From assembly GCA_014382295.1 (NCBI GenBank), contig JACNJZ010000093.1, forward strand, positions 570-64,569: 64,000 nucleotides of DNA. The letters run 5' to 3'. A program made the translations under genes and the position numbers. Shown piece after piece: positions 10,327-63,677 of the stretch (its first letter is position 1; the number at the start of each line of letters is the position of its first letter). The notes below the pieces were generated by a model. That model ran no database searches and was not told the DNA's origin. It was given only the letters and a program-made list of their open reading frames with translations. Source of the DNA: Candidatus Desulfobia pelagia. GTDB taxonomy: Bacteria > Desulfobacterota > Desulfobulbia > Desulfobulbales > SURF-16.

Positions 10327-10493
10327 GGGGAGCCCTCATTTCTTTTGTATATTCATCTGTTCTCTGGAGGTCGTTCTTGGTAATATGGTAGAAAAGATAA
10401 ACTATAGTAAGATCATATTGTTGTGTCCATTGATTTTTAATGTGGGCTTTGCGGGAAACTATTTGCTCTGCAGTGAAAAGAAGCAGGAGGGGT

Positions 10494-11630
10494 ATGGGTC
10501 TGGATACATTGCGAAATGCCACTACCGGTAGAAAAATACTCTTTGCCGGTTTGATTATTATAACGGTTGTTATAGGCGGTCTGCATCATTTTACCCCATG
10601 GGAGTTTGTATTTTTCCATGATACCTATCGCCGGCTGGCTTATTTCCCTATTGTGCTCGGTGCTCTCTTTTTCGGGGTCACCGGTGGCATGGTTATGGCT
10701 TTTCTCTCTTCCGTGGCCTTTATTCCCCATCTTATGATGTTTTCAGGGCATGGTTTTGAGGCATATTTGAGCGAATTCACCGAAATTTTTCTGTATCTCT
10801 CCGCCGGTCTGCTTGTTGGTATAATAACACGCAAGGAGACATTGCTGCGCTTGAAGTATAAGGCGTTATCTGAAAAGTTGGAGAAATCCTATGATCGCCT
10901 TCATAAAGAGACGGAGCAGCTTATTGAAGCAGAAGAGCAGCTGGCTCTTTCTCAGAAGATGTCAGAGCTTGGCCGGCTGTCAGCCTCTCTGGCCCATGAA
11001 ATAAAAAACCCTCTGAGTTCTATCCGGGGTACGGCTGAAATTCTCATGGATGATTTTCCCCCGGATCATCCAAAACATGAGTTTGCGGAAATTCTGTTGA
11101 AAGAGACAACACGGCTTAATGCCACAGTAGAAGATATTCTGAGTTACTCCCGGGAGCAGAAGGGAGCAGTTGAGGCCACGGAGCCCCTTGCCTCGGTAAT
11201 CCGCAGAACGATTACCCTTCTTGACCAGAGACTGCGAGACAAATCAATACAATGTGTCGAGATTGGAACTGACCAGGGAGATAGTTTTATGGTTGCAGGA
11301 AACCGGCTGGGCCAGGTTTTCCTGAATATCCTGTTGAATGCCATGGATGCCATTGATGTCGGTGGTAAAATCGTTGTCAGGGTCGCCAGGGAAAAAGAAG
11401 GATGCCAAATCGCCATTGAAGACAATGGGCCGGGTCTTTCTGACGGTGAGAAAAAAAAGATTTTCGAGCCTTTTTATTCGAATAAAGAGGAGGGAACCGG
11501 GCTGGGCCTTGTGATAAGCCGTAAAATTGTAGGAAGTTATGGGGGAACCATTGAGGTGACAGATGCTCCGGGAGGAGGAGCTGCCTTCACGGTTTTTATT
11601 CCCAACCAGACAGGAAAAACGTATGAGTGA
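10494..11630 (+). CDS. Membrane sensor histidine kinase (HisKA + HATPase_c)
   Basis: ORF 10440..11630. The preferred ATG at 10494 is preceded by GCAGGAGGGG. Four predicted TM helices, H-box SLAHEIKNPLSSI, and N and G boxes (NAMDA, DNGPGL, GTGLGL). Its stop overlaps the start of the next gene. Confidence 0.85.
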   Translation: MGLDTLRNATTGRKILFAGLIIITVVIGGLHHFTPWEFVFFHDTYRRLAYFPIVLGALFFGVTGGMVMAFLSSVAFIPHLMMFSGHGFEAYLSEFTEIFLYLSAGLLVGIITRKETLLRLKYKALSEKLEKSYDRLHKETEQLIEAEEQLALSQKMSELGRLSASLAHEIKNPLSSIRGTAEILMDDFPPDHPKHEFAEILLKETTRLNATVEDILSYSREQKGAVEATEPLASVIRRTITLLDQRLRDKSIQCVEIGTDQGDSFMVAGNRLGQVFLNILLNAMDAIDVGGKIVVRVAREKEGCQIAIEDNGPGLSDGEKKKIFEPFYSNKEEGTGLGLVISRKIVGSYGGTIEVTDAPGGGAAFTVFIPNQTGKTYE

Positions 11631-12969
11631 CACTATTTTATTGATTGATGATGATGAAAGTCTGCTGCGGGTAACCGAGTATAACCTGGCATCTGCCGGA
11701 TTCCGTGTGGTGACTGCCAGTTCCGGACAGCGTGGACTTGAGATGTTCCGGGAGCATTCGCCGGACATTGTTATTTCAGACGTCAAGCTTGGCGATATGA
11801 GCGGCCTTGACCTGCTCGCCGAGGTGAAAAAGGAATCACCGGTGACGCCTGTTATCATTATTACAGCCTTTGGTTCTATTGATATGGCTGTAAAGGCAAT
11901 GAAGAACGGTGCCTTCCATTTTGTCACCAAACCTTTTGATCGAGAGACCCTTCGCCTTTCCTGCAAGAAGGCCCTGGAGTTGAAGGAGCTTCGTGTTCAG
12001 AATGAGCAGTTGGCCCATGAGGTTAATCGTCTCACTGGTACCGAGGGAATGGAAACGGCAAATTCGGCTATGCGGGAGCTGCTGGATACGGCTTTGAGGG
12101 CTGCCGGAAGCGAGGCCACCATTTTGATTGCCGGGGAGTCCGGAACAGGAAAAGAAGTGTTGGCCCGTCTTATTCATCATCACAGCCCCAGGAAAAACGG
12201 GCCGATGGTGGCAGTGAACTGCGCGGCAATCCCTTCCGGGCTCATTGAAAGTGAATTGTTCGGTCATGTCAAAGGGGCTTTTACCGGCGCTATAAAAAAC
12301 AGAAAAGGCCGCTTTCAGGCTGCAGCCAAAGGGACGCTTTTTCTCGATGAGATAGGTGAACTTCAGATCGATCTGCAGGCAAAGCTTTTGCGCGCCATAC
12401 AGGAGAGGGAAGTGGAGGCTGTAGGAAGTCAGCGCCAGGAAAAGGTGGATGTCCGTCTTATTGCCGCCAGCAATAAAGACCTCAAGGAAGCCATAGGCGC
12501 CGGGGAGTTCAGGGAGGATCTCTATTACCGGCTTGGTGTTATCCCTCTTTATCTGCCGCCTTTAAGAGAGCGCACGGAAGATATTCCTGGCCTGGTTCGC
12601 CACTTTCTCAAGAAAATAGGGGCCCCGCCTGAAGTTACATTTTCCGATGACGCTTTGCAGCAGCTTTCTGTCTACCCATGGCCCGGCAATATCCGGGAAT
12701 TGCAGAATATTGTTGAGCGTTCGGTTATTTTAAGAAGTTCTTCTCTTATTGACGTCAAGGATCTGCATTTGGCAGGATCTGCGCCTGTGGCAGGAAGTTT
12801 CCCAAAGATACCGCCTGAAGGGTTATCCCTGGAGGAAGTGGAAAAAGATTTGATTCGGCAGGCATTGGCAATGGCAAACGGTAATCGTTCCGAGGCTGCC
12901 CGGTTACTTCATGTTCCCCGGCATGTCCTGATTTATCGTCTCGAGAAATATAAAGAGGAGCTGAAGTGA
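11623..12969 (+). CDS. Sigma-54-dependent response regulator (NtrC family: REC + AAA+ + Fis HTH)
   Basis: The start MSDTILLIDDDE at 11623 overlaps the kinase stop. Walker A GESGTGKE, GAFTGA loop and C-terminal HTH AARLLHVPRHVLIYRL. Confidence 0.9.
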   Translation: MSDTILLIDDDESLLRVTEYNLASAGFRVVTASSGQRGLEMFREHSPDIVISDVKLGDMSGLDLLAEVKKESPVTPVIIITAFGSIDMAVKAMKNGAFHFVTKPFDRETLRLSCKKALELKELRVQNEQLAHEVNRLTGTEGMETANSAMRELLDTALRAAGSEATILIAGESGTGKEVLARLIHHHSPRKNGPMVAVNCAAIPSGLIESELFGHVKGAFTGAIKNRKGRFQAAAKGTLFLDEIGELQIDLQAKLLRAIQEREVEAVGSQRQEKVDVRLIAASNKDLKEAIGAGEFREDLYYRLGVIPLYLPPLRERTEDIPGLVRHFLKKIGAPPEVTFSDDALQQLSVYPWPGNIRELQNIVERSVILRSSSLIDVKDLHLAGSAPVAGSFPKIPPEGLSLEEVEKDLIRQALAMANGNRSEAARLLHVPRHVLIYRLEKYKEELK

Positions 12970-14798: not shown

Positions 14799-14885
14799 GA
14801 CTTTTCTCCTTGCGGGGTGACCTTGCTGTATTGGTAGAGAAAAACTAATTTGAAGAAGTCGATATATTTTGCTATATACAACGGT

Positions 14886-15290
14886 ATGCCAAGAAAAAGC
14901 AAACAGAAAAAGAATAGAATAAATGGGATATCTTCATGTTGGCGTGGTCGTCTATGGTTAGATGGTCCCGAGGGTACATTTCTCGGCTATGGCAGGATTG
15001 TGCTCCTGGAACGAATTGAAGAATTTGGTTCGATAAGCAAAGCCGCACGCTCTATGGAAATGTCCTATAAACATGCGTGGGATTTGCTGGACTCCATGAA
15101 TCGGCAGTCCAGCGATAAGTTAGTTGAAACCTTTCGTGGAGGTAAGGATGGCGGTGGGGCTCGATTGACAGAGGCAGGCAGGCAGGCGGTGAAACTTTTT
15201 TGGAAAGTCCATGCGAAATTTCAGTGTTTTCTTGATCAGGAAACAGCGGAACTCAAGGAAATTCTTGGAGAAAATGGTCCCGACATCTAG
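14886..15290 (+). CDS. Winged-helix regulator resembling the ModE N-terminal (molybdate-responsive) domain
   Basis: ORF 14850..15290, where the track start is a TTG; I prefer the first ATG at 14886. GRIVLLERIEEFGSISKAARSMEMSYKHAWDLLDSMN...GGKDGGGARLTEAG is the ModE-N/LysR-type HTH signature. No Mop domains are present. Confidence 0.65.
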   Translation: MPRKSKQKKNRINGISSCWRGRLWLDGPEGTFLGYGRIVLLERIEEFGSISKAARSMEMSYKHAWDLLDSMNRQSSDKLVETFRGGKDGGGARLTEAGRQAVKLFWKVHAKFQCFLDQETAELKEILGENGPDI

Positions 15291-15323: not shown

Positions 15324-15881
15324 CTAAAACGGTTTTTGTCCAAGGAAGTTCCCTGGAGGGTCATAGTTGCAGACAATGATAATGTTATTGTTGCATAATG
15401 CTGTGGCGCAACCGATCTGTCGCGTATTCTGCCAAACAATTTGTGTGTAATGTCCTGTTGCGGCATAATTAGCTGCAGTGATGACATCTCCTTGATAGTC
15501 TTTCTTCTCACTTTCCCACGCTGTTACGGCATCTGAAATGCCATAATACCCTGCGGTCCCCATAAATAAATTTTCGCCATACTCCTGCTTCCATTTTCCC
15601 GAGCGTGGACGATGCTCCATGGAGCATTGTGTGGCCGCGAGATTGTCGGCCCATTCCTGAGCATAAAGAGCGATCTTGTCAGACCAGGCTACGGGGCCAA
15701 CGCCTACATCTGCTCGATACTGATTGTGAAGCATAAGCGCCTGTTGTGCCTCATGCTGTTCAAGGCGAGAGCCTGCAGAAAAACTGCTGCTCTGGGCGCT
15801 GTCTTCGGCGATGACATGAATTGGGGAAATCAGGGCCGCTACCAGGGGAAAAAGGATGATTGTTTTATTTCGAGTCTTCAT
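15324..15881 (-). CDS. Secreted CAP/SCP/PR-1-like domain protein
   Basis: 185 aa. Signal peptide MKTRNKTIILFPLVAALISPIHVIA and CAP signatures GHYTQIVWQNTRQIGCA and IIVCNYDPPGN. Confidence 0.8.
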   Translation of the reverse strand: MKTRNKTIILFPLVAALISPIHVIAEDSAQSSSFSAGSRLEQHEAQQALMLHNQYRADVGVGPVAWSDKIALYAQEWADNLAATQCSMEHRPRSGKWKQEYGENLFMGTAGYYGISDAVTAWESEKKDYQGDVITAANYAATGHYTQIVWQNTRQIGCATALCNNNIIIVCNYDPPGNFLGQKPF

Positions 15882-15927
15882 GTCGTTATTTATACGTCAT
15901 TCATCACTGTTTATCTTCCTTTTCCTC

Positions 15928-15967
15928 TGAAGAATATTCTTTACTCATTTGGAGAATATTCTTTACT
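15928..15967. promoter_or_regulatory. Two direct copies of an 18-nt site containing the palindrome AGAATATTCT (candidate enhancer/operator)
   Basis: TGAAGAATATTCTTTACT (15928-15945) and TGGAGAATATTCTTTACT (15950-15967). They differ at 1 position and are spaced 22 nt start to start. They end about 84 nt upstream of the sigma-54 -24 element and begin about 47 nt upstream of the divergent CAP gene start. Confidence 0.4.
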
Positions 15968-16049
15968 TCAAGGCCTCTGTAGCTTTTGTATGGATATTTT
16001 GTTCTTGAAAATATAGTAATTTCAGTCAGTTATCTTTTGTTCTTTCCTG

Positions 16050-16065
16050 TGGCACACCCTTTGCT
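16050..16065 (+). promoter_or_regulatory. Sigma-54 (-24/-12) promoter
   Basis: TGGCACaccctTTGCT matches TGGCAC-N5-TTGCW exactly. It lies about 85 nt upstream of the GTG start at 16150. Confidence 0.6.
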
Positions 16066-16149
16066 CTTTACTTAAGGCAACCTTGGAAAAGAAAATACAT
16101 AAAATGGTCTTTAGGGGCTGGGAAGAGAGATTCAGACAGGAGGTTTATT

Positions 16150-16620
16150 GTGAAAACGCTTTTCATTGGAATAATTTTGGTCGTGCTGTCATTGTTTGCG
16201 GTTCAGGCTCATTCGTTTAGGTTCAATCCGTGGCAGAACAGTGTGAAAGTCCTCTCTCCTGTTAACGGCAGAATTGAAATCCCTCTTTCTGAAATTAATG
16301 ACGGCAAGGCCCATCATTTCAAAGTCAAAGCTGATGATGGAGTCATGGTGACCTTTTTTACCCTGAAGAGCCGGGATGGGGTCATACGGGCAGCTATTGA
16401 TGCCTGTGATGTCTGTTACAAGGCCGGTAAAGGCTATGCCCAGAGCGGAGATTTCATGGTGTGTCTCAATTGCGGCCAGAAATTTGCCTCCAATAAAATC
16501 AACGTTATCAAGGGTGGCTGTAATCCGGCTCCCCTGGACAGAAAAATTGAAGGCGACAATCTGGTAATCAACATCAAGGATATCAATACCAACAGCTGGT
16601 ACTGTAGTTATAAATCATAG
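16150..16620 (+). CDS. DUF2318-like Cys-rich exported/membrane-anchored protein (putative metal-binding)
   Basis: 156 aa. GTG start preceded by CAGGAGG, N-terminal signal/anchor, and a CDVC...CLNC four-Cys pattern (IDACDVCYKAGKGY...FMVCLNCGQKF). I recall this family next to FtsX/ABC or FTR1 genes. Confidence 0.7.
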   Translation: MKTLFIGIILVVLSLFAVQAHSFRFNPWQNSVKVLSPVNGRIEIPLSEINDGKAHHFKVKADDGVMVTFFTLKSRDGVIRAAIDACDVCYKAGKGYAQSGDFMVCLNCGQKFASNKINVIKGGCNPAPLDRKIEGDNLVINIKDINTNSWYCSYKS

Positions 16621-16647
16621 GCAACCTCAAAGTCGTAGTCTTAATGG

Positions 16648-17097
16648 ATGGTGAACAGAATGGCATATGATATTGAAAAATACAGGGATAAGCGAGAGAA
16701 GGTTCTCGGGATGAAAAGGCGGGGAATAGGGTTCGGGACCTTTGCCCTTTTGATTTCTGCCGGAATCCTGGTGGGACTCAGCATGGTCGTGATCCCGAAA
16801 TCCGTTGCCTACCTCCGGGACAGGGGACTTGATGATGCCATATACAGGATCGGGAAAAATCAGAGCTGGCCGCAGCATTCCATCGATCGCCTTCGCGATC
16901 AGCCCGGGGTGGAAATGGTTATGATGGGTAACGACGACAAGCGAATTGTGGTTACTTTTAATCGGACAAAGATAGATACTGACAGATTATCTTCATTTTT
17001 TTACCAGGAAAAACTGCAGACAATCCTTTTGAATCAAGTAAATCACCGGCAGCGTCTTCATTCAATGCATGAGGAGAAACGTTTTGAAGCTCTATAA
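16648..17097 (+). CDS. Hypothetical single-pass membrane protein
   Basis: 149 aa with one TM helix (FGTFALLISAGILVGLSMVVI). I recognise no motif. It is in operon position between the DUF2318 and FtsX genes, and its 3' end overlaps the next ORF. Confidence 0.4.
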   Translation: MVNRMAYDIEKYRDKREKVLGMKRRGIGFGTFALLISAGILVGLSMVVIPKSVAYLRDRGLDDAIYRIGKNQSWPQHSIDRLRDQPGVEMVMMGNDDKRIVVTFNRTKIDTDRLSSFFYQEKLQTILLNQVNHRQRLHSMHEEKRFEAL

Positions 17098-18241
17098 TAT
17101 ATCCATAAACAACCTGAAGCGCCGCAAGGGCAAGATGATTTTTCTGGTTCTTGGTCTGCTGATCGGTATTGCTGTTATCGTTACCATGCTGTCAATAACG
17201 GAAAGCATGACCCTTGATATTGAAGAGCGGCTGGACCGGTTTGGAGCCAATATTGTCATGGTTCCCAAAAGTGAGAACCTTGCCCTTACTTATGGCGGTG
17301 TTAACGTCGGCGGCATCAGTTATGAGGTTAAGGAGTTTGATGAGGCGGATCTTGCCCGTATCAGAGAAATAAAAGATAATAGAAATCTTGGAGCCGTAGC
17401 CCCGAAAATTATGGGTGCGGTTGAGGTGTCTGGGCGAAAGGTCCTCCTCATGGGGGTGGATCTTGAAATGGAACTTCCGTTGAAAACATGGTGGCATCTT
17501 CAGGGCAGGTCTCCTGAAAATGACAGTGAAGTTATTCTCGGTTCTGAGGCTGCCAGGGCACTGGGTCTTGATGTCGGCGACTCTCTTAATATGAATGGCC
17601 GCGATTTTATGGTGAGTGCCCATCTGGAGCCGACAGGTGGTCCGGAGGATAGTATTATCATCGGCGACCTGCATCGCGTTCAGAATATCCTGGGGAAAGA
17701 AGGCCGGATCTCCATGGTTGAGATTGCCGCATTCTGCAGGGATTGCCCTATTGATGAGATGGTATTGCAGATTGCCGGTCAGTTTCCGGATGCCAAGGTG
17801 ACAGCCCTGAAGCAGGCAGTCATGTCGAAAATGCAGTCTATAGAGCTCGTTAAGACCTTCAGTTATGGTATTGCCGCTCTTGTTATTTTTATCGGTTCAC
17901 TTCTGGTTTTTGTGTCGATGATGGGTTCTGTTAATGAAAGAACACGGGAAATAGGGATTTTCAGGGCAATTGGTTTCAGGCGTGGTCATGTCATGCAGAT
18001 AATTCTGCTGGAAGCCATTGTTGTTGGCTTTATCGGCGGCGTGGGCGGATTTGTGTCAGGAACTGGTCTAGCCAGGATTATCCTGCCCCTGGTGATTCCG
18101 GATTCCTCTTCTTCGGGGATTAATATGTCCATGGGGGCTGTCGCCGTTGCTCTTGCAGTGGCTCTCAGTCTTCTCGCCAGCATTTGGCCTGCCCATAAGG
18201 GAAGCAGGCTTGACCCAAGTGAAGCATTACGGGCATTATAG
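17069..18241 (+). CDS. ABC transporter permease, FtsX/MacB-like
   Basis: 390 aa. The N-terminal TM is followed by a large periplasmic domain and a C-terminal FtsX 3-TM bundle (REIGIFRAIGFRRGHV). The start is uncertain by a few codons. Confidence 0.85.
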   Translation: MRRNVLKLYNISINNLKRRKGKMIFLVLGLLIGIAVIVTMLSITESMTLDIEERLDRFGANIVMVPKSENLALTYGGVNVGGISYEVKEFDEADLARIREIKDNRNLGAVAPKIMGAVEVSGRKVLLMGVDLEMELPLKTWWHLQGRSPENDSEVILGSEAARALGLDVGDSLNMNGRDFMVSAHLEPTGGPEDSIIIGDLHRVQNILGKEGRISMVEIAAFCRDCPIDEMVLQIAGQFPDAKVTALKQAVMSKMQSIELVKTFSYGIAALVIFIGSLLVFVSMMGSVNERTREIGIFRAIGFRRGHVMQIILLEAIVVGFIGGVGGFVSGTGLARIILPLVIPDSSSSGINMSMGAVAVALAVALSLLASIWPAHKGSRLDPSEALRAL

Positions 18242-18250
18242 GAGAACGCA

Positions 18251-18949
18251 ATGGCAGCAGTGAATCATGAAGTAGAGCATTTGATTGAGATACGAAATAT
18301 CGGCAAGGATTACCAGAGCGGGGACGAAATGGTTCCGGCTATACGGCAGATGGATTTTGCCATTGATGATGGAGAGTTCGTTACTATTATGGGGCACTCC
18401 GGGTCAGGGAAGAGTACGCTGCTTTCGGTTCTGGGTGGACTGAACCATCCAAGCCGCGGCAAGGTGTTTATCGACAGTCTTGATCTCTATGATTTGAGCA
18501 GTGAGCAGAGGGCGGATTTCCGAAGTGAGTATATAGGTATTATTTTTCAATCCTTTCAGCTTATCACGTATCTTACGGTGTTGGAAAATGTAATCCTGCC
18601 CATGGCTATAACCGGCTTGAAACGAAAGGAAAAAGAGCAGATGGCCATGGATGTGCTCCTCAAGGTCGGTCTTGCCTCTAAAGCGGACAGGTTGCCGGAC
18701 CAGCTCTCTGGCGGTGAACAGGAACGGGTGGCCATTGCCCGGGCTATTGTTAATCAGCCGCCTATTCTTCTGGCAGATGAACCGACAGGGAACCTGGATT
18801 CAGAGACAGCATCTGAAGTCATGGAACTGTTGACTAGACTCAATCGGGAGGAGGGGCTTACCATTATCATGGTCACTCATAATCCTGAGATAAGCGTGTA
18901 CTCCAATCGGACGATTCGTGTTCAGGACGGAACATGTCTGGAGCACTGA
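18251..18949 (+). CDS. ABC transporter ATP-binding protein (MacB/LolD-type)
   Basis: 232 aa. Walker A GHSGSGKST, signature LSGGEQERVAIARA and Walker B ILLADEPT. Confidence 0.9.
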   Translation: MAAVNHEVEHLIEIRNIGKDYQSGDEMVPAIRQMDFAIDDGEFVTIMGHSGSGKSTLLSVLGGLNHPSRGKVFIDSLDLYDLSSEQRADFRSEYIGIIFQSFQLITYLTVLENVILPMAITGLKRKEKEQMAMDVLLKVGLASKADRLPDQLSGGEQERVAIARAIVNQPPILLADEPTGNLDSETASEVMELLTRLNREEGLTIIMVTHNPEISVYSNRTIRVQDGTCLEH

Positions 18950-19042: not shown

Positions 19043-19480
19043 TCAACATCCTTCGATAAGTTTTTTGCCGAGGCTTTTTTTCAGGTCCAGGGCTTTGGTT
19101 TCCACTTCCGGCTGGACTGGTGCTGTGCTTGGAGCCGGGGTTGGGCTGATTGTCTGGGTCAGTCCATTTACTTTTTCAGAGGCCTTGTCCATCATTTCGG
19201 CACCTGTCTCTTTCATGGACTCACCGGCCTCTATTGCTGTTTCAACAGCTTCTGCCGTAATTTTCTTTGCCTCTTCAACCACCTGCTCCGTTTTTTCTTT
19301 TACCTCTTCGACAACATGCGCGGTCTGTTCCTTTACTTTTTCAACGACAGCAGGAACCTGCTCTTGCATAGTCTGTTTTGTCGCAGGTGCCGGGGCCTTT
19401 TCTTCAGGTTTGTCACACCCTGCAGACAGCAGTGATAAACTGATAAAGGTCATTGTCATGAGTACGCTGAGTTTTTTCAT
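19043..19480 (-). CDS. Lipoprotein with Glu/Lys-rich helical repeats
   Basis: 145 aa. Lipobox LLSAGC after a signal peptide, AGGAGA RBS, and repeated E-K-V-K-E-Q/T...VVEE motifs. Confidence 0.6.
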   Translation of the reverse strand: MKKLSVLMTMTFISLSLLSAGCDKPEEKAPAPATKQTMQEQVPAVVEKVKEQTAHVVEEVKEKTEQVVEEAKKITAEAVETAIEAGESMKETGAEMMDKASEKVNGLTQTISPTPAPSTAPVQPEVETKALDLKKSLGKKLIEGC

Positions 19481-38063: not shown

Positions 38064-39125
38064 TTAAGAAAGTACGTTTTTTCTTTCAGTATTTTTCTGT
38101 GGATTGCCCGGCCATTTTTTCCGTTCGCTGACCAGCCCTTCGACGATCAGCAGGATAATGGCCAGAGCCAGGAAGATCTGAAATTTGTCTTCATGCCGTT
38201 TTATAATTTCTGTTTCAAAGTCCTTTTTGTCGGCTGTGGCAATAAGATCACGGTATACCTCACCCAGATCTATGGAGCCGGTGGCAACGGGCAGGTATTT
38301 TCCTCCCGGGGTGGCCTTGGCCATCTGCCGGAGGGTTGAGGCGTCAAGCCTGCTCCAGACTTCCTCTCCCTGGTATTTAAGGAAGGATGTCTGTCCGGTG
38401 TGTTCGTTCACAGGGATGCGTTGCCCTTCGTTTTCGTTGCCAAGGCCGACAATGAGAAGCCTGATGCCTTCATCTCCTGCAGTTTCGGCTGCCTGGAGAG
38501 GGAAGCTTTCATGGTCTTCACCGTCGGTGATCAGTATAATGTCCCGAAACTGTTTTTGCTGGGAATCAAAAATTTTGTTGAGAACCGTTCTGATAGCATC
38601 TCCGAGCATGGTGCCGCCCCTGCTGACACTCGTGGTATCTGTTGCGTCCAAGGCCTGGAGAAAAAAGCCATAGTCAACGGTGAGGGGACATTTGACGGCG
38701 GCATCGCCGGCAAAAGCAACAAGAGCGACACGGTCTCCCTGTAATTGACTGATACAGTCGGCAATGGCAAGTTTGGCCCGTTCCAGCCTGTTGGGTTTGA
38801 GGTCATTGGCAAGCATACTCCGCGATACGTCGAGAATGAAGACAACATCCCGGCCTGAACGGCTGATCGTTGTTTCCTTGACATTCCAGGCAGGTCGTGA
38901 AAGTCCGATGATGATGCCTGTGATGGCTACACAGAAGAGCAGCATCTTTATGATACGGCCGGTAGGGGATGATGATACGGGTATCCTGGGGATAAGTTCC
39001 GGAGATAAGAAGGAAGCCAGCGCCTTTCTGCGTTTGCCAAGGTCATATATGAAGAGAAGGACGACAAAAGGAAGTACCCAGAGCAGAAGCAGGCTTTCAA
39101 TGTGATAAAAATAAAAATCACTCAT
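38064..39125 (-). CDS. VWA domain membrane protein (BatB-like)
   Basis: 353 aa. N-terminal TMs and a VWA MIDAS motif (VFILDVSRSM). Its start overlaps the batA stop (ATGA). Confidence 0.8.
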   Translation of the reverse strand: MSDFYFYHIESLLLLWVLPFVVLLFIYDLGKRRKALASFLSPELIPRIPVSSSPTGRIIKMLLFCVAITGIIIGLSRPAWNVKETTISRSGRDVVFILDVSRSMLANDLKPNRLERAKLAIADCISQLQGDRVALVAFAGDAAVKCPLTVDYGFFLQALDATDTTSVSRGGTMLGDAIRTVLNKIFDSQQKQFRDIILITDGEDHESFPLQAAETAGDEGIRLLIVGLGNENEGQRIPVNEHTGQTSFLKYQGEEVWSRLDASTLRQMAKATPGGKYLPVATGSIDLGEVYRDLIATADKKDFETEIIKRHEDKFQIFLALAIILLIVEGLVSERKKWPGNPQKNTERKNVLS

Positions 39126-40183
39126 GGGACTTTCCTGAACAGGGTTGAGCTTAGGAGGAATTCCAGCAGCAGGAGTGCCAGGGCCGCCTGTATAAAGGGA
39201 ACAAAAAATTCCCTGTAGTCTATAAATCGGATAGATTCAATTTCGCTTTTTTCCAGTTGATCAATTTCTCCATAGATTGCCCTCAGGCTGTCGGCATTGG
39301 ATGCCATTCGGAAAACACCGCCTGTTTCTTCGGCAAGCATTGCCAGTGTCTTCTGGTCAACCCCACGTCCCGCTCGCTGAATTCTGCTGAAAAATCCTCC
39401 CAGGCCGCCAGGGCCGTTTTCGGAGCCAATGCCGACAGTATAGATTTTTATCCCTCTTGATTTCGCCAGTTCCGCAGCATCTGAAGGTGTCAGGGTGCCC
39501 CTGTTGTGGGCGCCGTCGGTAAGAAGGATGATAATTTTACTCTTGATCTGGTAGTGGCGGTCCGAAGGGTTTTCCTGCTGCATTCTGGCGAGGGCTTCTT
39601 CCACTTTCTCCAGTCTGGCAACAGCCAGGCCAAGTCCGTCACCGATTGAAGTGCCGTCTTCATCTCTCCGGTCAACGAGGCTGATGTTTTGTACAAGATC
39701 GTCAACTGCTTCGTGGGCAAGGGTAAGAGGGCAGGCCGTTTCTGCAAAACGGGCAAAGCTGACTACGCCGATAAGATCATTTGGCCGCCCTGTGAGATCA
39801 TCATTGTTGCCGCTGATGAATTCTGAGAATATTTTTTTTACAACTTCAAGGCGGTTGGTTTCAGTGCCGTCAAAATTCATTGTTTCTCCCATGCTGCTTG
39901 ACCGGTCAACAACTGCTTCGATGGCAATACCATGGCTGACATCCTGAATTTTTTCAAGACCCTGCTGAGGCCGTGCCAGGCCGACAGTGAGCAGTATAAG
40001 CGCCAGGACCCTGAGGGCAAGGGGGAGATAATGCAGCCTTTGCCGCAAGGATGTGCCGGTATGGGCAAACAGGGCAATGGATGAGTATCTGACAGTGCTC
40101 CGCCGGTTTCTGCGCAACTGCAGAGAGACAAAAGGGATAATGAGGATGAGGGCAAGGAAGGCCCAGGGGAACGCAAACCTCAT
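39122..40183 (-). CDS. VWA domain membrane protein (BatA-like)
   Basis: 353 aa. N-terminal TMs, VWA (AVVDRSSSM, LLTDGAHN) and a C-terminal TM. Confidence 0.8.
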   Translation of the reverse strand: MRFAFPWAFLALILIIPFVSLQLRRNRRSTVRYSSIALFAHTGTSLRQRLHYLPLALRVLALILLTVGLARPQQGLEKIQDVSHGIAIEAVVDRSSSMGETMNFDGTETNRLEVVKKIFSEFISGNNDDLTGRPNDLIGVVSFARFAETACPLTLAHEAVDDLVQNISLVDRRDEDGTSIGDGLGLAVARLEKVEEALARMQQENPSDRHYQIKSKIIILLTDGAHNRGTLTPSDAAELAKSRGIKIYTVGIGSENGPGGLGGFFSRIQRAGRGVDQKTLAMLAEETGGVFRMASNADSLRAIYGEIDQLEKSEIESIRFIDYREFFVPFIQAALALLLLEFLLSSTLFRKVP

Positions 40184-48348: not shown

Positions 48349-49911
48349 ATGATCATGACAGATAAGCACTATACACAAGAGCAGACATTGGCGGAAATCA
48401 CCTCGTTGTACGAGGTGACGAAGGTGCTTGCTTCTTCGGATGATCTGCAGGACTGTCTGAGCCGGGTCATGGCTATTCTGGCGGACAGCAAGGGGATGAA
48501 TCACGGTACTGTCAGTATTGTCGATCCGACAACAGGCCATCTCGAAATTGAAGTGGCCTATGGAATGACATCCGATGCCAGGAAAAGAGGTAAATATCAG
48601 GTCGGAGAAGGAATTACAGGCCGCGTTGTTTCCAGTGGCTCTCCTATTGTCGTACCGCAAATAAGTGAGGAGCCTCTTTTTCTCAATCGAACACAATCCC
48701 GCGGAGACCTCAAGCAGAAGATGGTCTCCTTTATATGTGTACCTATCAAGCGTGGTCAGCGGTCGATTGGCGCCCTCAGTATTGATCGGGAATATCAAAA
48801 GGGGATCGATTACGATCAGGACATCCAGTTCCTTTCAGTAATAAGCGGTTTGATTTCCCAGGCTGTTACCCGAATAATGGCGGTCAATGAAGAGCGGAAG
48901 AAGCTTGAGCAGGAGAATAGTTTTTTAAAGCGTGAGCTGGGTCAGAAATTTCAGGTCGAAAATATTATCAGCAACAGCAGCAGGATGCAGGAAGTTCTTG
49001 AGATGGTGCATCGTGTGGCAGACAGTAATGCCACGGTACTGCTTCGCGGTGAGTCGGGGACAGGAAAGACCCTTGTCGCCAAGGCCATCCATTACGGAAG
49101 TAAACGCGTCAAAGCCCCTATTGTCACTGTAAATTGTTCCGCTTTGCCTGAAACTCTGCTTGAAAGTGAGCTTTTCGGCTATGAAAAGGGGGCCTTTACC
49201 GGGGCAAATGTTGCCAAAAAGGGGCGTTTTGAACAGGCGGAAGGCGGCACACTGTTTCTCGATGAAATTGGAGAACTGAGTCAGTCTGTACAGGTGAAGC
49301 TGCTCAATGTCATTCAGGAGAGAGAATTTCAGCGTCTTGGCGGTGTCAAACCGGTCAAATGTAATGTCAGGCTGGTTACTGCCACCAATAAGGATCTTGA
49401 GAAAGCCGTTTCTGAAGGAAGTTTCCGGGAAGATTTTTATTACCGGTTGAATGTGTTTCCTGTATATCTTCCGCCGCTTCGCAAAAGACAGACGGATATT
49501 CTGCTTCTTGCCGAGCATTTTCTCAAAGAGTTCTGCCGGGAAAATGATAAAAACATATCACGGATTTCCACTCCGGCCATTGATCTTCTCATGCAGTATC
49601 ATTGGCCTGGGAATGTCAGGGAATTGCAGAATTGCCTGGAGAGGGCAGTGCTTATTTGCGATGAGGACACCATAAAAATCTATCATCTCCCACCATCACT
49701 GCAGAGCGCTGAGAGTATCAGTGACAGGAACCCGCTGTCGTTTGCTTCCGCTGTTGAGAATTTTGAGAAGGAAATGATTATTGACGCCTTGAAGAAGAGC
49801 CGTGGAAATCAGACAAGAGCCGCCGGACTCCTTGATACTAGTCTTCGCATTATCAATTATAAAATTCATAAATTTGGTATAGATTCCAGGATGTACCGAG
49901 TCGATTCATGA
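48349..49911 (+). CDS. Sigma-54-dependent transcriptional activator with N-terminal GAF domain (NifA-like architecture)
   Basis: 520 aa. GAF region, GESGTGKT, GAFTGA and a Fis-type HTH (AAGLLDTSLRIINYKI). Confidence 0.9.
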   Translation: MIMTDKHYTQEQTLAEITSLYEVTKVLASSDDLQDCLSRVMAILADSKGMNHGTVSIVDPTTGHLEIEVAYGMTSDARKRGKYQVGEGITGRVVSSGSPIVVPQISEEPLFLNRTQSRGDLKQKMVSFICVPIKRGQRSIGALSIDREYQKGIDYDQDIQFLSVISGLISQAVTRIMAVNEERKKLEQENSFLKRELGQKFQVENIISNSSRMQEVLEMVHRVADSNATVLLRGESGTGKTLVAKAIHYGSKRVKAPIVTVNCSALPETLLESELFGYEKGAFTGANVAKKGRFEQAEGGTLFLDEIGELSQSVQVKLLNVIQEREFQRLGGVKPVKCNVRLVTATNKDLEKAVSEGSFREDFYYRLNVFPVYLPPLRKRQTDILLLAEHFLKEFCRENDKNISRISTPAIDLLMQYHWPGNVRELQNCLERAVLICDEDTIKIYHLPPSLQSAESISDRNPLSFASAVENFEKEMIIDALKKSRGNQTRAAGLLDTSLRIINYKIHKFGIDSRMYRVDS

Positions 49912-62060: not shown

Positions 62061-63677
62061 ATGGCTTTCAGGAATCTTGATCAACTGCCGGCATATGCAG
62101 CCCTGAAGAATCTGGCAGCGTCAGCAGTCGATCTTACCAGGCCGGATATCATAACGACAGAACGCATCTCAAAGTATGTCTGTTCCAATGGCGAATTTGA
62201 TCTTCTCTACGGGACACAGAGGGTTAATGATGATGTGCTGGAGGCGCTGCAGCAACTGGCGGATGAAAGCCGAGCTGTTGACCAGTTCCTGGATATGAAG
62301 CGGGGGCAGGTGATTAATCGTATCGAGGGTCATGACAGTGAGAACCGCCAGGTGCTGCATACAGCCTGTCGGGATCTGTTTACTGAGTCACCCTGTGAGC
62401 CGAAAGCAACGGCACAGGCCAGGCAGGAACTCGACAAGCTCAGGAAGTTTCTCGGAGATATTGACGCAGGAGTCATTGTTAACAGTGAAGGTGCGGGTTT
62501 TACCGATATGGTCCAAGTGGGCATTGGTGGATCTGATCTGGGTCCTCGAGCTCTTTACCATGCTCTCAGTGCCTATCAGGTTGCCGGCCGCCGTGTTCAT
62601 TTTATCTCCAATGTCGATCCTGATGATGCAGCGTCAGTTCTTAATAAACTTGATCTTTCCCGTACCCTGGTAAATGTTGTTTCAAAAAGTGGTACTACCC
62701 TGGAAACCTTGACCAACGAGGAACTTGTTCGGGCCGCTTATGTGAAAGCCGGTCTTGACCCTGCACTTCATTTTGTTGCCGTGACTGGGGCGGGAAGTCC
62801 CATGGATTCCCCGAAATATCTCCGCTCTTTTTATATGTTTGACTATATAGGCGGCCGTTACAGTGTTACTTCCATGGTCGGCGGAGTCATGCTCGGATTT
62901 GCTCTGGGCTATGCAGCCTTTGAGAAGATTCTTCGCGGAGCTGACATGGTTGATAAGGCCGCTGAAGAAAGAGATATTACCAAGAATATTCCTCTGCTCA
63001 TGGCACTCCTTGGCATATGGAATCATAATCTTCTTGACTGCGAGACCTTGGCGGTACTGCCCTACAGTCAGGGGCTGATACGATTTGCCGCCCACCTGCA
63101 GCAGTGCGATATGGAGAGTAACGGAAAAGCCATAAACCGTCAGGGGGATTTTTTGCCATATCAATCGGGGCCCATTGTCTGGGGAGAACCGGGAACCAAT
63201 GGCCAGCATGCCTTTTATCAACTCATCCATCAGGGAACAACGGTTGTTCCCGTTGAGTTTGTAGGGTTTCGGGAATCCCAGTACGATCAGGATATCCTGA
63301 TTCACGAGACAACCTCCCAGGAGAAACTGGTGGCCAATCTTCTTGCCCAGTCCCTTGCCCTGGCAGTCGGCCACAAAGATGATAACCCGAACAGGACGTT
63401 CCCGGGTAACAGGCCGAACTCCATTCTCATGGCTGACAAGCTTACACCGCAGACAATGGGGGCCCTTCTTGCAATATATGAAGCTAAAATAACTTTTCAG
63501 GGGTTTCTGTGGAATATTAATTCCTTTGATCAAGAAGGCGTGCAGCTTGGGAAAAAACTGGCGAACCAGCTTCTTGATCATCTTTCTTCATGGCGTCTGG
63601 ATGGTGAATACACAGGGATGACTTCTGATCCTGAGGGATGGGCTTTGCTGCAGACCGCCCGTGTTATTCGAAAATAA
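62061..63677 (+). CDS. pgi: Glucose-6-phosphate isomerase
   Basis: 538 aa. VGIGGSDLGP, VSKSGTTLET, GGRYSVTS and ESNGK motifs. Confidence 0.92.
   Translation: MAFRNLDQLPAYAALKNLAASAVDLTRPDIITTERISKYVCSNGEFDLLYGTQRVNDDVLEALQQLADESRAVDQFLDMKRGQVINRIEGHDSENRQVLHTACRDLFTESPCEPKATAQARQELDKLRKFLGDIDAGVIVNSEGAGFTDMVQVGIGGSDLGPRALYHALSAYQVAGRRVHFISNVDPDDAASVLNKLDLSRTLVNVVSKSGTTLETLTNEELVRAAYVKAGLDPALHFVAVTGAGSPMDSPKYLRSFYMFDYIGGRYSVTSMVGGVMLGFALGYAAFEKILRGADMVDKAAEERDITKNIPLLMALLGIWNHNLLDCETLAVLPYSQGLIRFAAHLQQCDMESNGKAINRQGDFLPYQSGPIVWGEPGTNGQHAFYQLIHQGTTVVPVEFVGFRESQYDQDILIHETTSQEKLVANLLAQSLALAVGHKDDNPNRTFPGNRPNSILMADKLTPQTMGALLAIYEAKITFQGFLWNINSFDQEGVQLGKKLANQLLDHLSSWRLDGEYTGMTSDPEGWALLQTARVIRK

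Follow-up and report, generated by a model that had tools for sequence, protein, structure and literature searches.

We investigated a 64-kb stretch of DNA (hereafter the window) from a Desulfobulbaceae metagenome-assembled genome, focusing on the region in front of an operon that encodes a DUF2318 protein and an ATP-binding cassette (ABC) transporter. Our comparisons indicate, with good confidence, that positions 15928-16065 form the sigma-54 control region of this four-gene operon (16150-18949), and that it is switched by a sensor histidine kinase (10494-11630) and an NtrC-type response regulator (11623-12969) whose genes lie approximately 3 kb upstream of the proposed regulator-binding sites. 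At the sequence level, the motifs exist, their arrangement is conserved across loci, and they are linked to a single family of regulator genes and, in other genomes, to genes for CusCBA-type pumps, a Cu/Ag-type P-type ATPase, HMA proteins and cytochrome c maturation. We consider the chances about evenly balanced that these palindromic sites mark an undescribed but widespread Cu(I)/Ag(I)-responsive sigma-54 two-component regulon, in which a His-bearing four-helix sensor is paired with a regulator reading TGAAGAATATTCTTCA through PRHVLIYRLEK.

Predicted sigma-54 promoter and paired palindromic sites

The predicted promoter, TGGCACaccctTTGCT (also written TGGCACACCCTTTGCT), occupies 16050-16065 on the plus strand and reads TGGCAC-accct-TTGCT, an exact match to the -24/-12 consensus including its spacing, with GG at 16051-52 and GC at 16063-64 and the two dinucleotides exactly 10 bp apart. 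Neither strand of the window holds another exact match to TGGCAC-N5-TTGCW (expected number, 0.04; a match arose in 4 of 100 shuffled sequences). From the end of the -12 element to the GTG start codon at 16150 there are 85 nt, and transcription is predicted to start at about 16075-16077. A preliminary description of the window had already reported this element about 85 nt before the GTG, and its coordinates, sequence and spacing proved correct throughout.

Two 18-nt direct repeats, TGAAGAATATTCTTTACT (15928-15945) and TGGAGAATATTCTTTACT (15950-15967), lie further upstream, and the -24 element starts 83 nt past their end. The same description had placed these repeats 22 nt apart, which is correct, and they are non-random when compared with shuffled sequences: the 18-mer has no further match in the window even at three mismatches (expected number, 0.13), and none of 100 shuffles gave two copies. 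A repeat search of the window lengthened the direct repeat to 22 nt (period, 22 nt) and detected the palindromic cores. We take the relevant unit, as judged from the sequences, to be the 16-bp palindrome TGAAGAATATTCTTCA, which refines the 18-nt repeat recognized earlier. The distal candidate upstream activator site (UAS-1, TGAAGAATATTCTTTA, 15928-15943) matches this palindrome at 15/16 positions and the proximal candidate (UAS-2, TGGAGAATATTCTTTA, 15950-15965) at 14/16; neither is assigned a strand, and GAATATTC is found within both. They are separated by 22 bp from centre to centre, and their centres lie 114 bp (distal) and 92 bp (proximal) from the start of the -24 element, corresponding to about -140 and -118 relative to the predicted transcription start. 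Such geometry is that of enhancer sites, where two or more dyad-symmetric sites stand in helical phase some 80-150 bp ahead of the -24 element. An RNA element in the 5' leader was also considered and set aside, an Rfam search of 15800-16300 having returned no RNA family at E <= 1.

Conservation of the arrangement in protein-anchored loci

Relatives of the region were retrieved by similarity of the DUF2318 protein alone, leaving the set free of motif selection, and the window together with nine such loci (given here as L numbers) provided 10 sequences totalling 175,759 bp. Seven independent loci (L001, L004, L127, L128, L130, L131, and L132) carry the same operon, with 63-85% protein identity, and two others (L006 and L129) carry a solo DUF2318 paralogue. 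We scored every 16-mer against TGAAGAATATTCTTCA and defined a pair as two 16-mers that each reached at least 12/16 and stood 20-23 bp apart. Exactly one tandem pair was found in each of the 10 sequences (0 pairs in 100 shuffles), invariably in the gap that precedes the DUF2318 gene or, where an HMA-like gene heads the operon, precedes that gene. A sigma-54-type element follows the pair in 10/10 sequences, at a distance from the proximal centre of 92 bp in the window, 91-96 bp in six sequences and 79, 151 or 169 bp in the other three. The earlier reading of the region as a sigma-54 promoter with a tandem site for an enhancer-binding protein is thus supported by phylogenetic footprinting in 9/9 protein-anchored loci. 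The gene upstream of the sites varies, being a divergent CAP-domain gene in the window (15324-15881, minus strand; Pfam CAP), the regulator gene in L004, and, beyond a 770-bp gap, an unrelated small gene in L001. Because what lies upstream changes from one locus to the next, the sites most plausibly go with the sigma-54 promoter rather than with the CAP gene, which we regard as a neighbour only and not as a conserved part of the system.

The solo paralogues form a variant of this arrangement (L006:5789-5925 and L129:5445-5580). They lack ABC genes and stand beside ArsR/ArsP-type genes, with tandem sites 20 bp apart and TGGCA(T/C)-N5-TTGTA 91-92 bp downstream of these.

The AT-rich stretch between sites and promoter had been suggested to be a region bound by integration host factor (IHF), which our search did not confirm. 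No match to the IHF site WATCAANNNNTTR with one mismatch or fewer occurs in the window, and the best candidate, TTTCAGTCAGTTA (16020-16032, plus strand), is a weak and doubtful IHF-like element with two mismatches, located about midway between the sites and the promoter. One-mismatch IHF sites were present in 4 of the 10 protein-anchored sequences, and in L001, L130, and L131 such a site takes the equivalent position, 56-57 bp past the proximal site. Two copies of AT(A/C)TTTTGTTCTT (15994-16006 and 16032-16044; 38 bp apart) flank the IHF-like element of the window between the activator sites and the promoter.

Occurrence of the paired sites across genomes

We further scanned 185,579 species genomes for AGAATATT-N13-15-AGAATATTCTT and obtained at least 120 matching stretches; the counts that follow refer to the matches listed. 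A tandem site was regarded as good when both 16-mers matched the palindrome at 12/16 or better and one of them at 14/16 or better, which applied to at least 38 sites, distributed among the Desulfobulbales, Desulfobacterales, Desulfurivibrionaceae, Geobacteraceae, Desulfuromonas, Fibrobacteraceae, Krumholzibacteriota, Calditrichota, KSB1, and Zixibacteria. About half of the matches were chance occurrences in AT-rich genomes (Bacillota, Bacteroidota, and archaea), and these, separated off on the basis of site score, provided an internal control. TGGYAY-N5-BTGH, within 200 bp and facing away from the sites, accompanied 22/38 good sites versus 3/50 of the others, and these three lower-scoring matches were real DUF2318 loci with one weaker half-site each. 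At the 22 good sites, the distances between site and promoter cluster at 70-72, 84-85, 91-96, and 102-107 bp.

The scan also revealed a second spacing class, in which about 71 bp separate the proximal centre from the start of the -24 element, a distance shorter by two helical turns than that of the window (L033, L037, L043, L055, L067, L097, and L126). Desulfurivibrio-type loci of this class mostly precede YtkA-like/CusCBA-type operons, and the Geobacteraceae loci L055 and L067 precede a gene for a His/Met-rich cytochrome c'-like protein. Furthermore, eight loci (L024, L027, L036, L040, L054, L068, L081, and L118) keep TGGCAC/T at -24 and have TTGA, TTGT, or GTGA in place of TTGC at -12. The GC is normally conserved here, and such loosening of it is unusual.

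A candidate activator and its partner kinase

Two sigma-54 activators are encoded in the window, and the preliminary description had held that neither could be assigned to the sites. We assign the NtrC-type response regulator at 11623-12969 (plus strand) as the probable activator because it is orthologous to regulators encoded beside the sites in other genomes and has the same recognition helix, which is absent from the second activator (48349-49911). The regulator and kinase of the window are 75% and 62% identical, respectively, to the pair in L004, whose stop codon precedes the first palindrome by 28 bp. Regulators with 63-73% identity are encoded directly beside the sites in L027, L034, L039, L077, L117, L122, L128, L130, L131, and L132, and more distant ones (43-50%) in Fibrobacteraceae, Krumholzibacteriota, and other loci (L025, L026, L048, L062, and L076), so that site-adjacent regulators with 43-75% identity occur in at least 15 loci from several phyla. 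Their C-termini conform to ...GGN(R/K)S.(A/T)A..L.IPRHVL(I/V/L)YR(L/I)EK(Y/F), and the DNA-reading helix IPRHVLIYRLEK is common to the regulator of the window and the site-adjacent regulators, all of which keep IPRHVL(I/V/L)YR(L/I).

The regulator itself has the architecture of the NtrC family, comprising a REC domain, an AAA+ domain with GAFTGA and a Fis-type helix-turn-helix (HTH) that ends in VPRHVLIYRLEKY (Pfam: Response_reg, Sigma54_activat with 232 bits, AAA_lid_14, and HTH_8). Both GAFTGA and the phospho-acceptor region are present in the alignment, and with its REC, AAA+ and HTH_8 domains in place the protein looks functional. The closest solved structures are those of NtrC1, NtrC4, LuxO, and ZraR. 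We also compared both proteins with named orthologue groups, all of which were rejected, every score being below the NCBIfam equivalog cut-off: the regulator reached 453 bits for AtoC (cut-off 714), 405 for NtrC (558.6), 398 for GlrR (763), and 384 for ZraR (760), and the kinase 180 for ZraS (479).

The kinase assigned to the system (10494-11630, plus strand) consists of four membrane helices followed by HisKA and HATPase domains. Its longest open reading frame (ORF) starts at 10440, and the ATG at 10494 has the better ribosome-binding site. The membrane helices carry the conserved motifs LHHFTP, FHDTYRRLAYFPI, and FIPH, which appear in the alignment of this sensor family as LH(H/F/Y)xTP, H(D/G)xYRRLxYFPI, and (F/Y)xPH. 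No Pfam or NCBIfam family matched the four-helix sensor region (10494-10900). This region is nevertheless retained in taxa ranging from Desulfobulbales to Fibrobacteraceae, certain His, Arg, and Pro positions being invariant, and distant kinase homologues have a His-rich loop, HGDHGEHGAHARH, inserted.

Autoregulation of the kinase/regulator operon was rejected, as the gap before the kinase gene (10327-10493) contains neither a palindrome nor a -24/-12 element. A third palindrome-like sequence, TGCAGAATATTGTTGA (12701-12716; 13/16 matches), falls inside the regulator gene; we discarded it as a further site, since it lies on the conserved QNIVE codons and is most likely a coding coincidence.

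Genes behind the sites in other genomes and the probable signal

The genes downstream of the sites in other loci belong to a limited number of kinds. HMA-like CxxC proteins head the DUF2318 operon in L004, L127, L128, L131, L034, L030, and L047. In L037 the sites are followed by YtkA-like, OEP, CusB-like, and RND genes, in L040 by an OEP gene and a CusB-like gene with an HMBD domain, and in L039, L077, L025, and L076 by OEP genes. A P-type ATPase with YHS and HMBD domains is encoded behind the sites in L081, and a ZraP/CpxP-like protein with a cytochrome c in L130. Cytochrome c maturation genes follow the sites and a sigma-54-type promoter in two unrelated genomes, comprising ResB and CcsA in L029 (430-3259, minus strand) and a CcmF-like gene in L054 (4145-6376, minus strand), and on sequence these appear to fall in the same regulon.

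Two of the transporters carry motifs that bear on their substrate. The RND pump of L037 has AIGAMVDASIIMVEN in helix 4, which we take to be the CusA-type motif, its three Met positions being aligned by eye to the CusA triad, and the P-type ATPase of L081 has CPC, YN(x)4P, and MSMSS. We assume, after Nies 2003 and Arguello 2003, that the motifs of both proteins are Cu(I)/Ag(I) signatures. Given such Cu/Ag-type transporters behind the same sites elsewhere, the inducing signal is probably copper or silver.

Proposed mechanism

From these sequences we infer occupancy of the sites, dependence on sigma-54, the position of the start site and the nature of the inducing signal, which together would give the following course of events. 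RNA polymerase containing sigma-54 would wait as a closed complex on TGGCAC-N5-TTGCT (16050-16065) until the membrane kinase senses its signal, for which Cu(I)/Ag(I) or a metal stress close to it is the likeliest candidate, and phosphorylates the NtrC-type regulator. Dimers of the regulator would then occupy the two 16-bp palindromes on the same face of the helix and form an active AAA+ ring, looping the AT-rich DNA between the sites and the promoter, and the ring would spend ATP to open the promoter.

The DUF2318/ABC operon and neighbouring features

The putative control region precedes four plus-strand genes, and the earlier label of a DUF2318/ABC operon agrees with the Pfam hits in this same-strand run (DUF2318, MacB_PCD with FtsX, and ABC_tran). 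The first gene (16150-16620) encodes a DUF2318/FtrD-like protein (PF10080, 103.8 bits) of 156 aa that is secreted and bears a signal peptide as well as two CxxC motifs (CDVC and CLNC); its GTG start is preceded by AGGAGG at 16138-16143, and no solved structure was found for it by sequence search. The second gene (16648-17097) encodes a conserved single-pass membrane protein of 149 aa without a family match. In every operon locus whose downstream genes could be called, it sits between the DUF2318 and permease genes, and tblastn gave 43-47% identity for it in other loci. A MacB-type ABC permease (17069-18241; MacB_PCD and FtsX) and an ABC ATPase of the LolD/MacB type (18251-18949; ABC_tran) complete the run, and the next ORF (19043-19480) is convergent. 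The spacings between the four genes are 27, -29, and 9 nt, and they therefore probably form one operon.

Several other features were observed in the window. An ORF of 146 aa with a TTG start (14850-15290) encodes only a LysR-type HTH, without the usual substrate-binding half, and may represent a LysR gene that has been truncated or an ORF called in error. A possible second sigma-54 promoter, or else a chance match, is TGGCACTCCTGCTGCT on the minus strand (39165-39180), which departs from the -24/-12 consensus at a single position; it falls in the end of one ORF and precedes the next, 38064-39125, by about 40 nt. Two near-matches to AGAATATTCT (62923-62932 and 62983-62992), 60 bp apart inside ORF 62061-63677, are probably due to chance.

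Alternative explanations

The most serious alternative retains the sigma-54 promoter and the regulator and differs in the signal, with the kinase sensing zinc/cadmium, iron status, or thiol/redox envelope stress; we regard this as possible, though clearly less likely than not to be the case. The highest family scores of the regulator and kinase are those for AtoC/AtoS and ZraR/ZraS, though under every family cut-off, and the ZraP/CpxP-like protein in the L130 operon and the cytochrome c maturation genes of L029 and L054 would suit such a signal, as would the action of Campylobacter DUF2318/ABC homologues in iron acquisition. In contrast, wherever the sequence of a transporter reveals its specificity, this is of the Cu/Ag type (a CusA-type RND pump and a P1B-1-type ATPase with HMBD), and no Czc-type or Zn-type signature was seen. 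A different view is that the palindromes are operators of a regulator that is not an enhancer-binding protein, such as a metal-sensing repressor, or that they control the CAP gene, their proximity to the sigma-54 element being incidental. The CAP gene starts with an ATG at 15881 on the minus strand, 47 nt from the first repeat, so that the sites span 47-86 nt from this start codon, and palindromes of such size are also typical of repressors. The fixed distance, however, is kept to the -24/-12 element and not to the upstream gene, the sites co-occur with one family of NtrC-type regulator genes, and no CAP homologue lies near the activator sites in the 126 other loci examined. In addition, a simple sigma-70 scan gave one weak match only, inside the coding start of the DUF2318 gene, and no promoter for the CAP gene. 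We therefore consider this explanation improbable, and the earlier idea that the repeats act on the CAP gene unlikely as a conserved function. Binding of the sites by the GAF-domain activator (48349-49911) is more improbable still. It is a complete activator (GAF, AAA+, and HTH_8) encoded in the same window, but its recognition helix reads TSLRIINYKIHKF as against VPRHVLIYRLEKY, its 45% identity to the site-adjacent regulators (measured against that of L004) covers the AAA+ core only, and Pfam calls no GAF-type activator beside the sites in the protein-anchored loci.

Control of the operon by the kinase/regulator pair, with copper or silver as the signal, has points that weigh against it as well. 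With one mismatch allowed, TGGCAC-N5-TTGCW occurs 4 times in the window against 2.98 expected, which is no enrichment, so that the promoter match on its own is modest evidence. Among the matches listed in the scan, 16/38 good sites lack TGGYAY-N5-BTGH; some of these are truncated by the ends of the retrieved stretches and others have an unusual -12 (TTGA, TTGT, or GTGA). The positions in AGAATATT and AGAATATTCTT were fixed by the scan pattern and are conserved by construction, so that independent evidence in the scan loci is confined to the flanking bases, the association with a promoter and the genes present. Two operon loci, L001 and L127, have no regulator gene within 6 kb. As for the signal, the metal assignment draws on genes of other genomes and on signature motifs from the literature, and the DUF2318/ABC module of Campylobacter serves iron uptake, not copper defence (PMC10783030).

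Comparison with known systems

The proposed control region resembles that of E. coli glnAp2, where NtrC acts on a -24/-12 promoter from two palindromic sites about two helical turns apart and more than 100 bp upstream, and in both systems a regulator with REC, AAA+ (GAFTGA), and Fis-type HTH domains is paired with a histidine kinase. The system differs from NtrC in its site, TGAAGAATATTCTTCA, in the score of its regulator (405 versus a cut-off of 558.6 bits), and in its targets, which are transport and not nitrogen genes. ZraSR (HydHG) of E. coli, which responds to zinc/lead and drives zraP through sigma-54, is likewise a metal-linked two-component system of the NtrC family; the regulator counts ZraR among its nearest named and solved relatives, and a ZraP/CpxP-like protein is encoded in the related operon L130. 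Unlike in ZraSR, the scores here are far below the family cut-offs, the sensor is a four-helix membrane region without a recognized periplasmic domain, and the targets are Cus-type pumps and the DUF2318/ABC module.

CorSR of Myxococcus xanthus is a copper-responsive sigma-54 two-component system that controls a copper P-type ATPase and accessory genes with predicted -24/-12 promoters (PMC3707914). It shares with the present system a kinase linked, here putatively, to copper and a sigma-54-dependent response regulator, a likeness drawn from its published description. CorS is described as having a single membrane helix together with a periplasmic sensor and a HAMP domain, and a CorR binding site was not reported (PMC3707914); the kinase of the window, in contrast, has four helices and no HAMP hit. 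For the transport module, the closest described counterpart is FetABCD of C. jejuni (fetMP-fetABCDEF), which supports iron uptake by FetMP and whose biochemical role has been called unclear (PMC10783030). As in FetABCD, a DUF2318 protein is encoded in consecutive genes with an FtsX-type permease and an ABC ATPase. Unlike FetABCD, the operon of the window has one permease gene instead of two and a small secreted DUF2318 protein instead of an 8-helix protein with a YHS domain, and neither it nor its 12-kb relatives contain FetM/FetP (FTR1/P19), thioredoxins or a polytopic YHS FetA. The regulation would also differ, with control by sigma-54 and a two-component system and co-regulation with Cu/Ag export genes, here read from sequence, as opposed to induction by iron limitation.

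Overall, the control logic appears to be the textbook NtrC paradigm, and the regulator and its target sequence appear to be undescribed. The palindrome string was in no relevant paper of the literature searched, a search outside of which lay most subscription papers and regulon databases (RegPrecise), and the sigma-54 regulon papers examined, on Desulfovibrio and across phyla, place no copper or metal efflux under this control.

Implications

These findings supply a sensory system that appears in many anaerobes, and is without an NCBIfam name, with a defined motif, a cognate regulator and an inducer that can be tested. By tying the DUF2318/ABC module to a putative copper/silver export regulon, they also offer a concrete hypothesis on the function of this module. 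For annotation, the motif may allow operons of uncultured Desulfobacterota to be placed in a metal-stress regulon. If the proposed regulon is real, the DUF2318/MacB-type ABC module would be a copper-defence device, sharing its regulation with CusCBA, CopA, and the genes for cytochrome c maturation.

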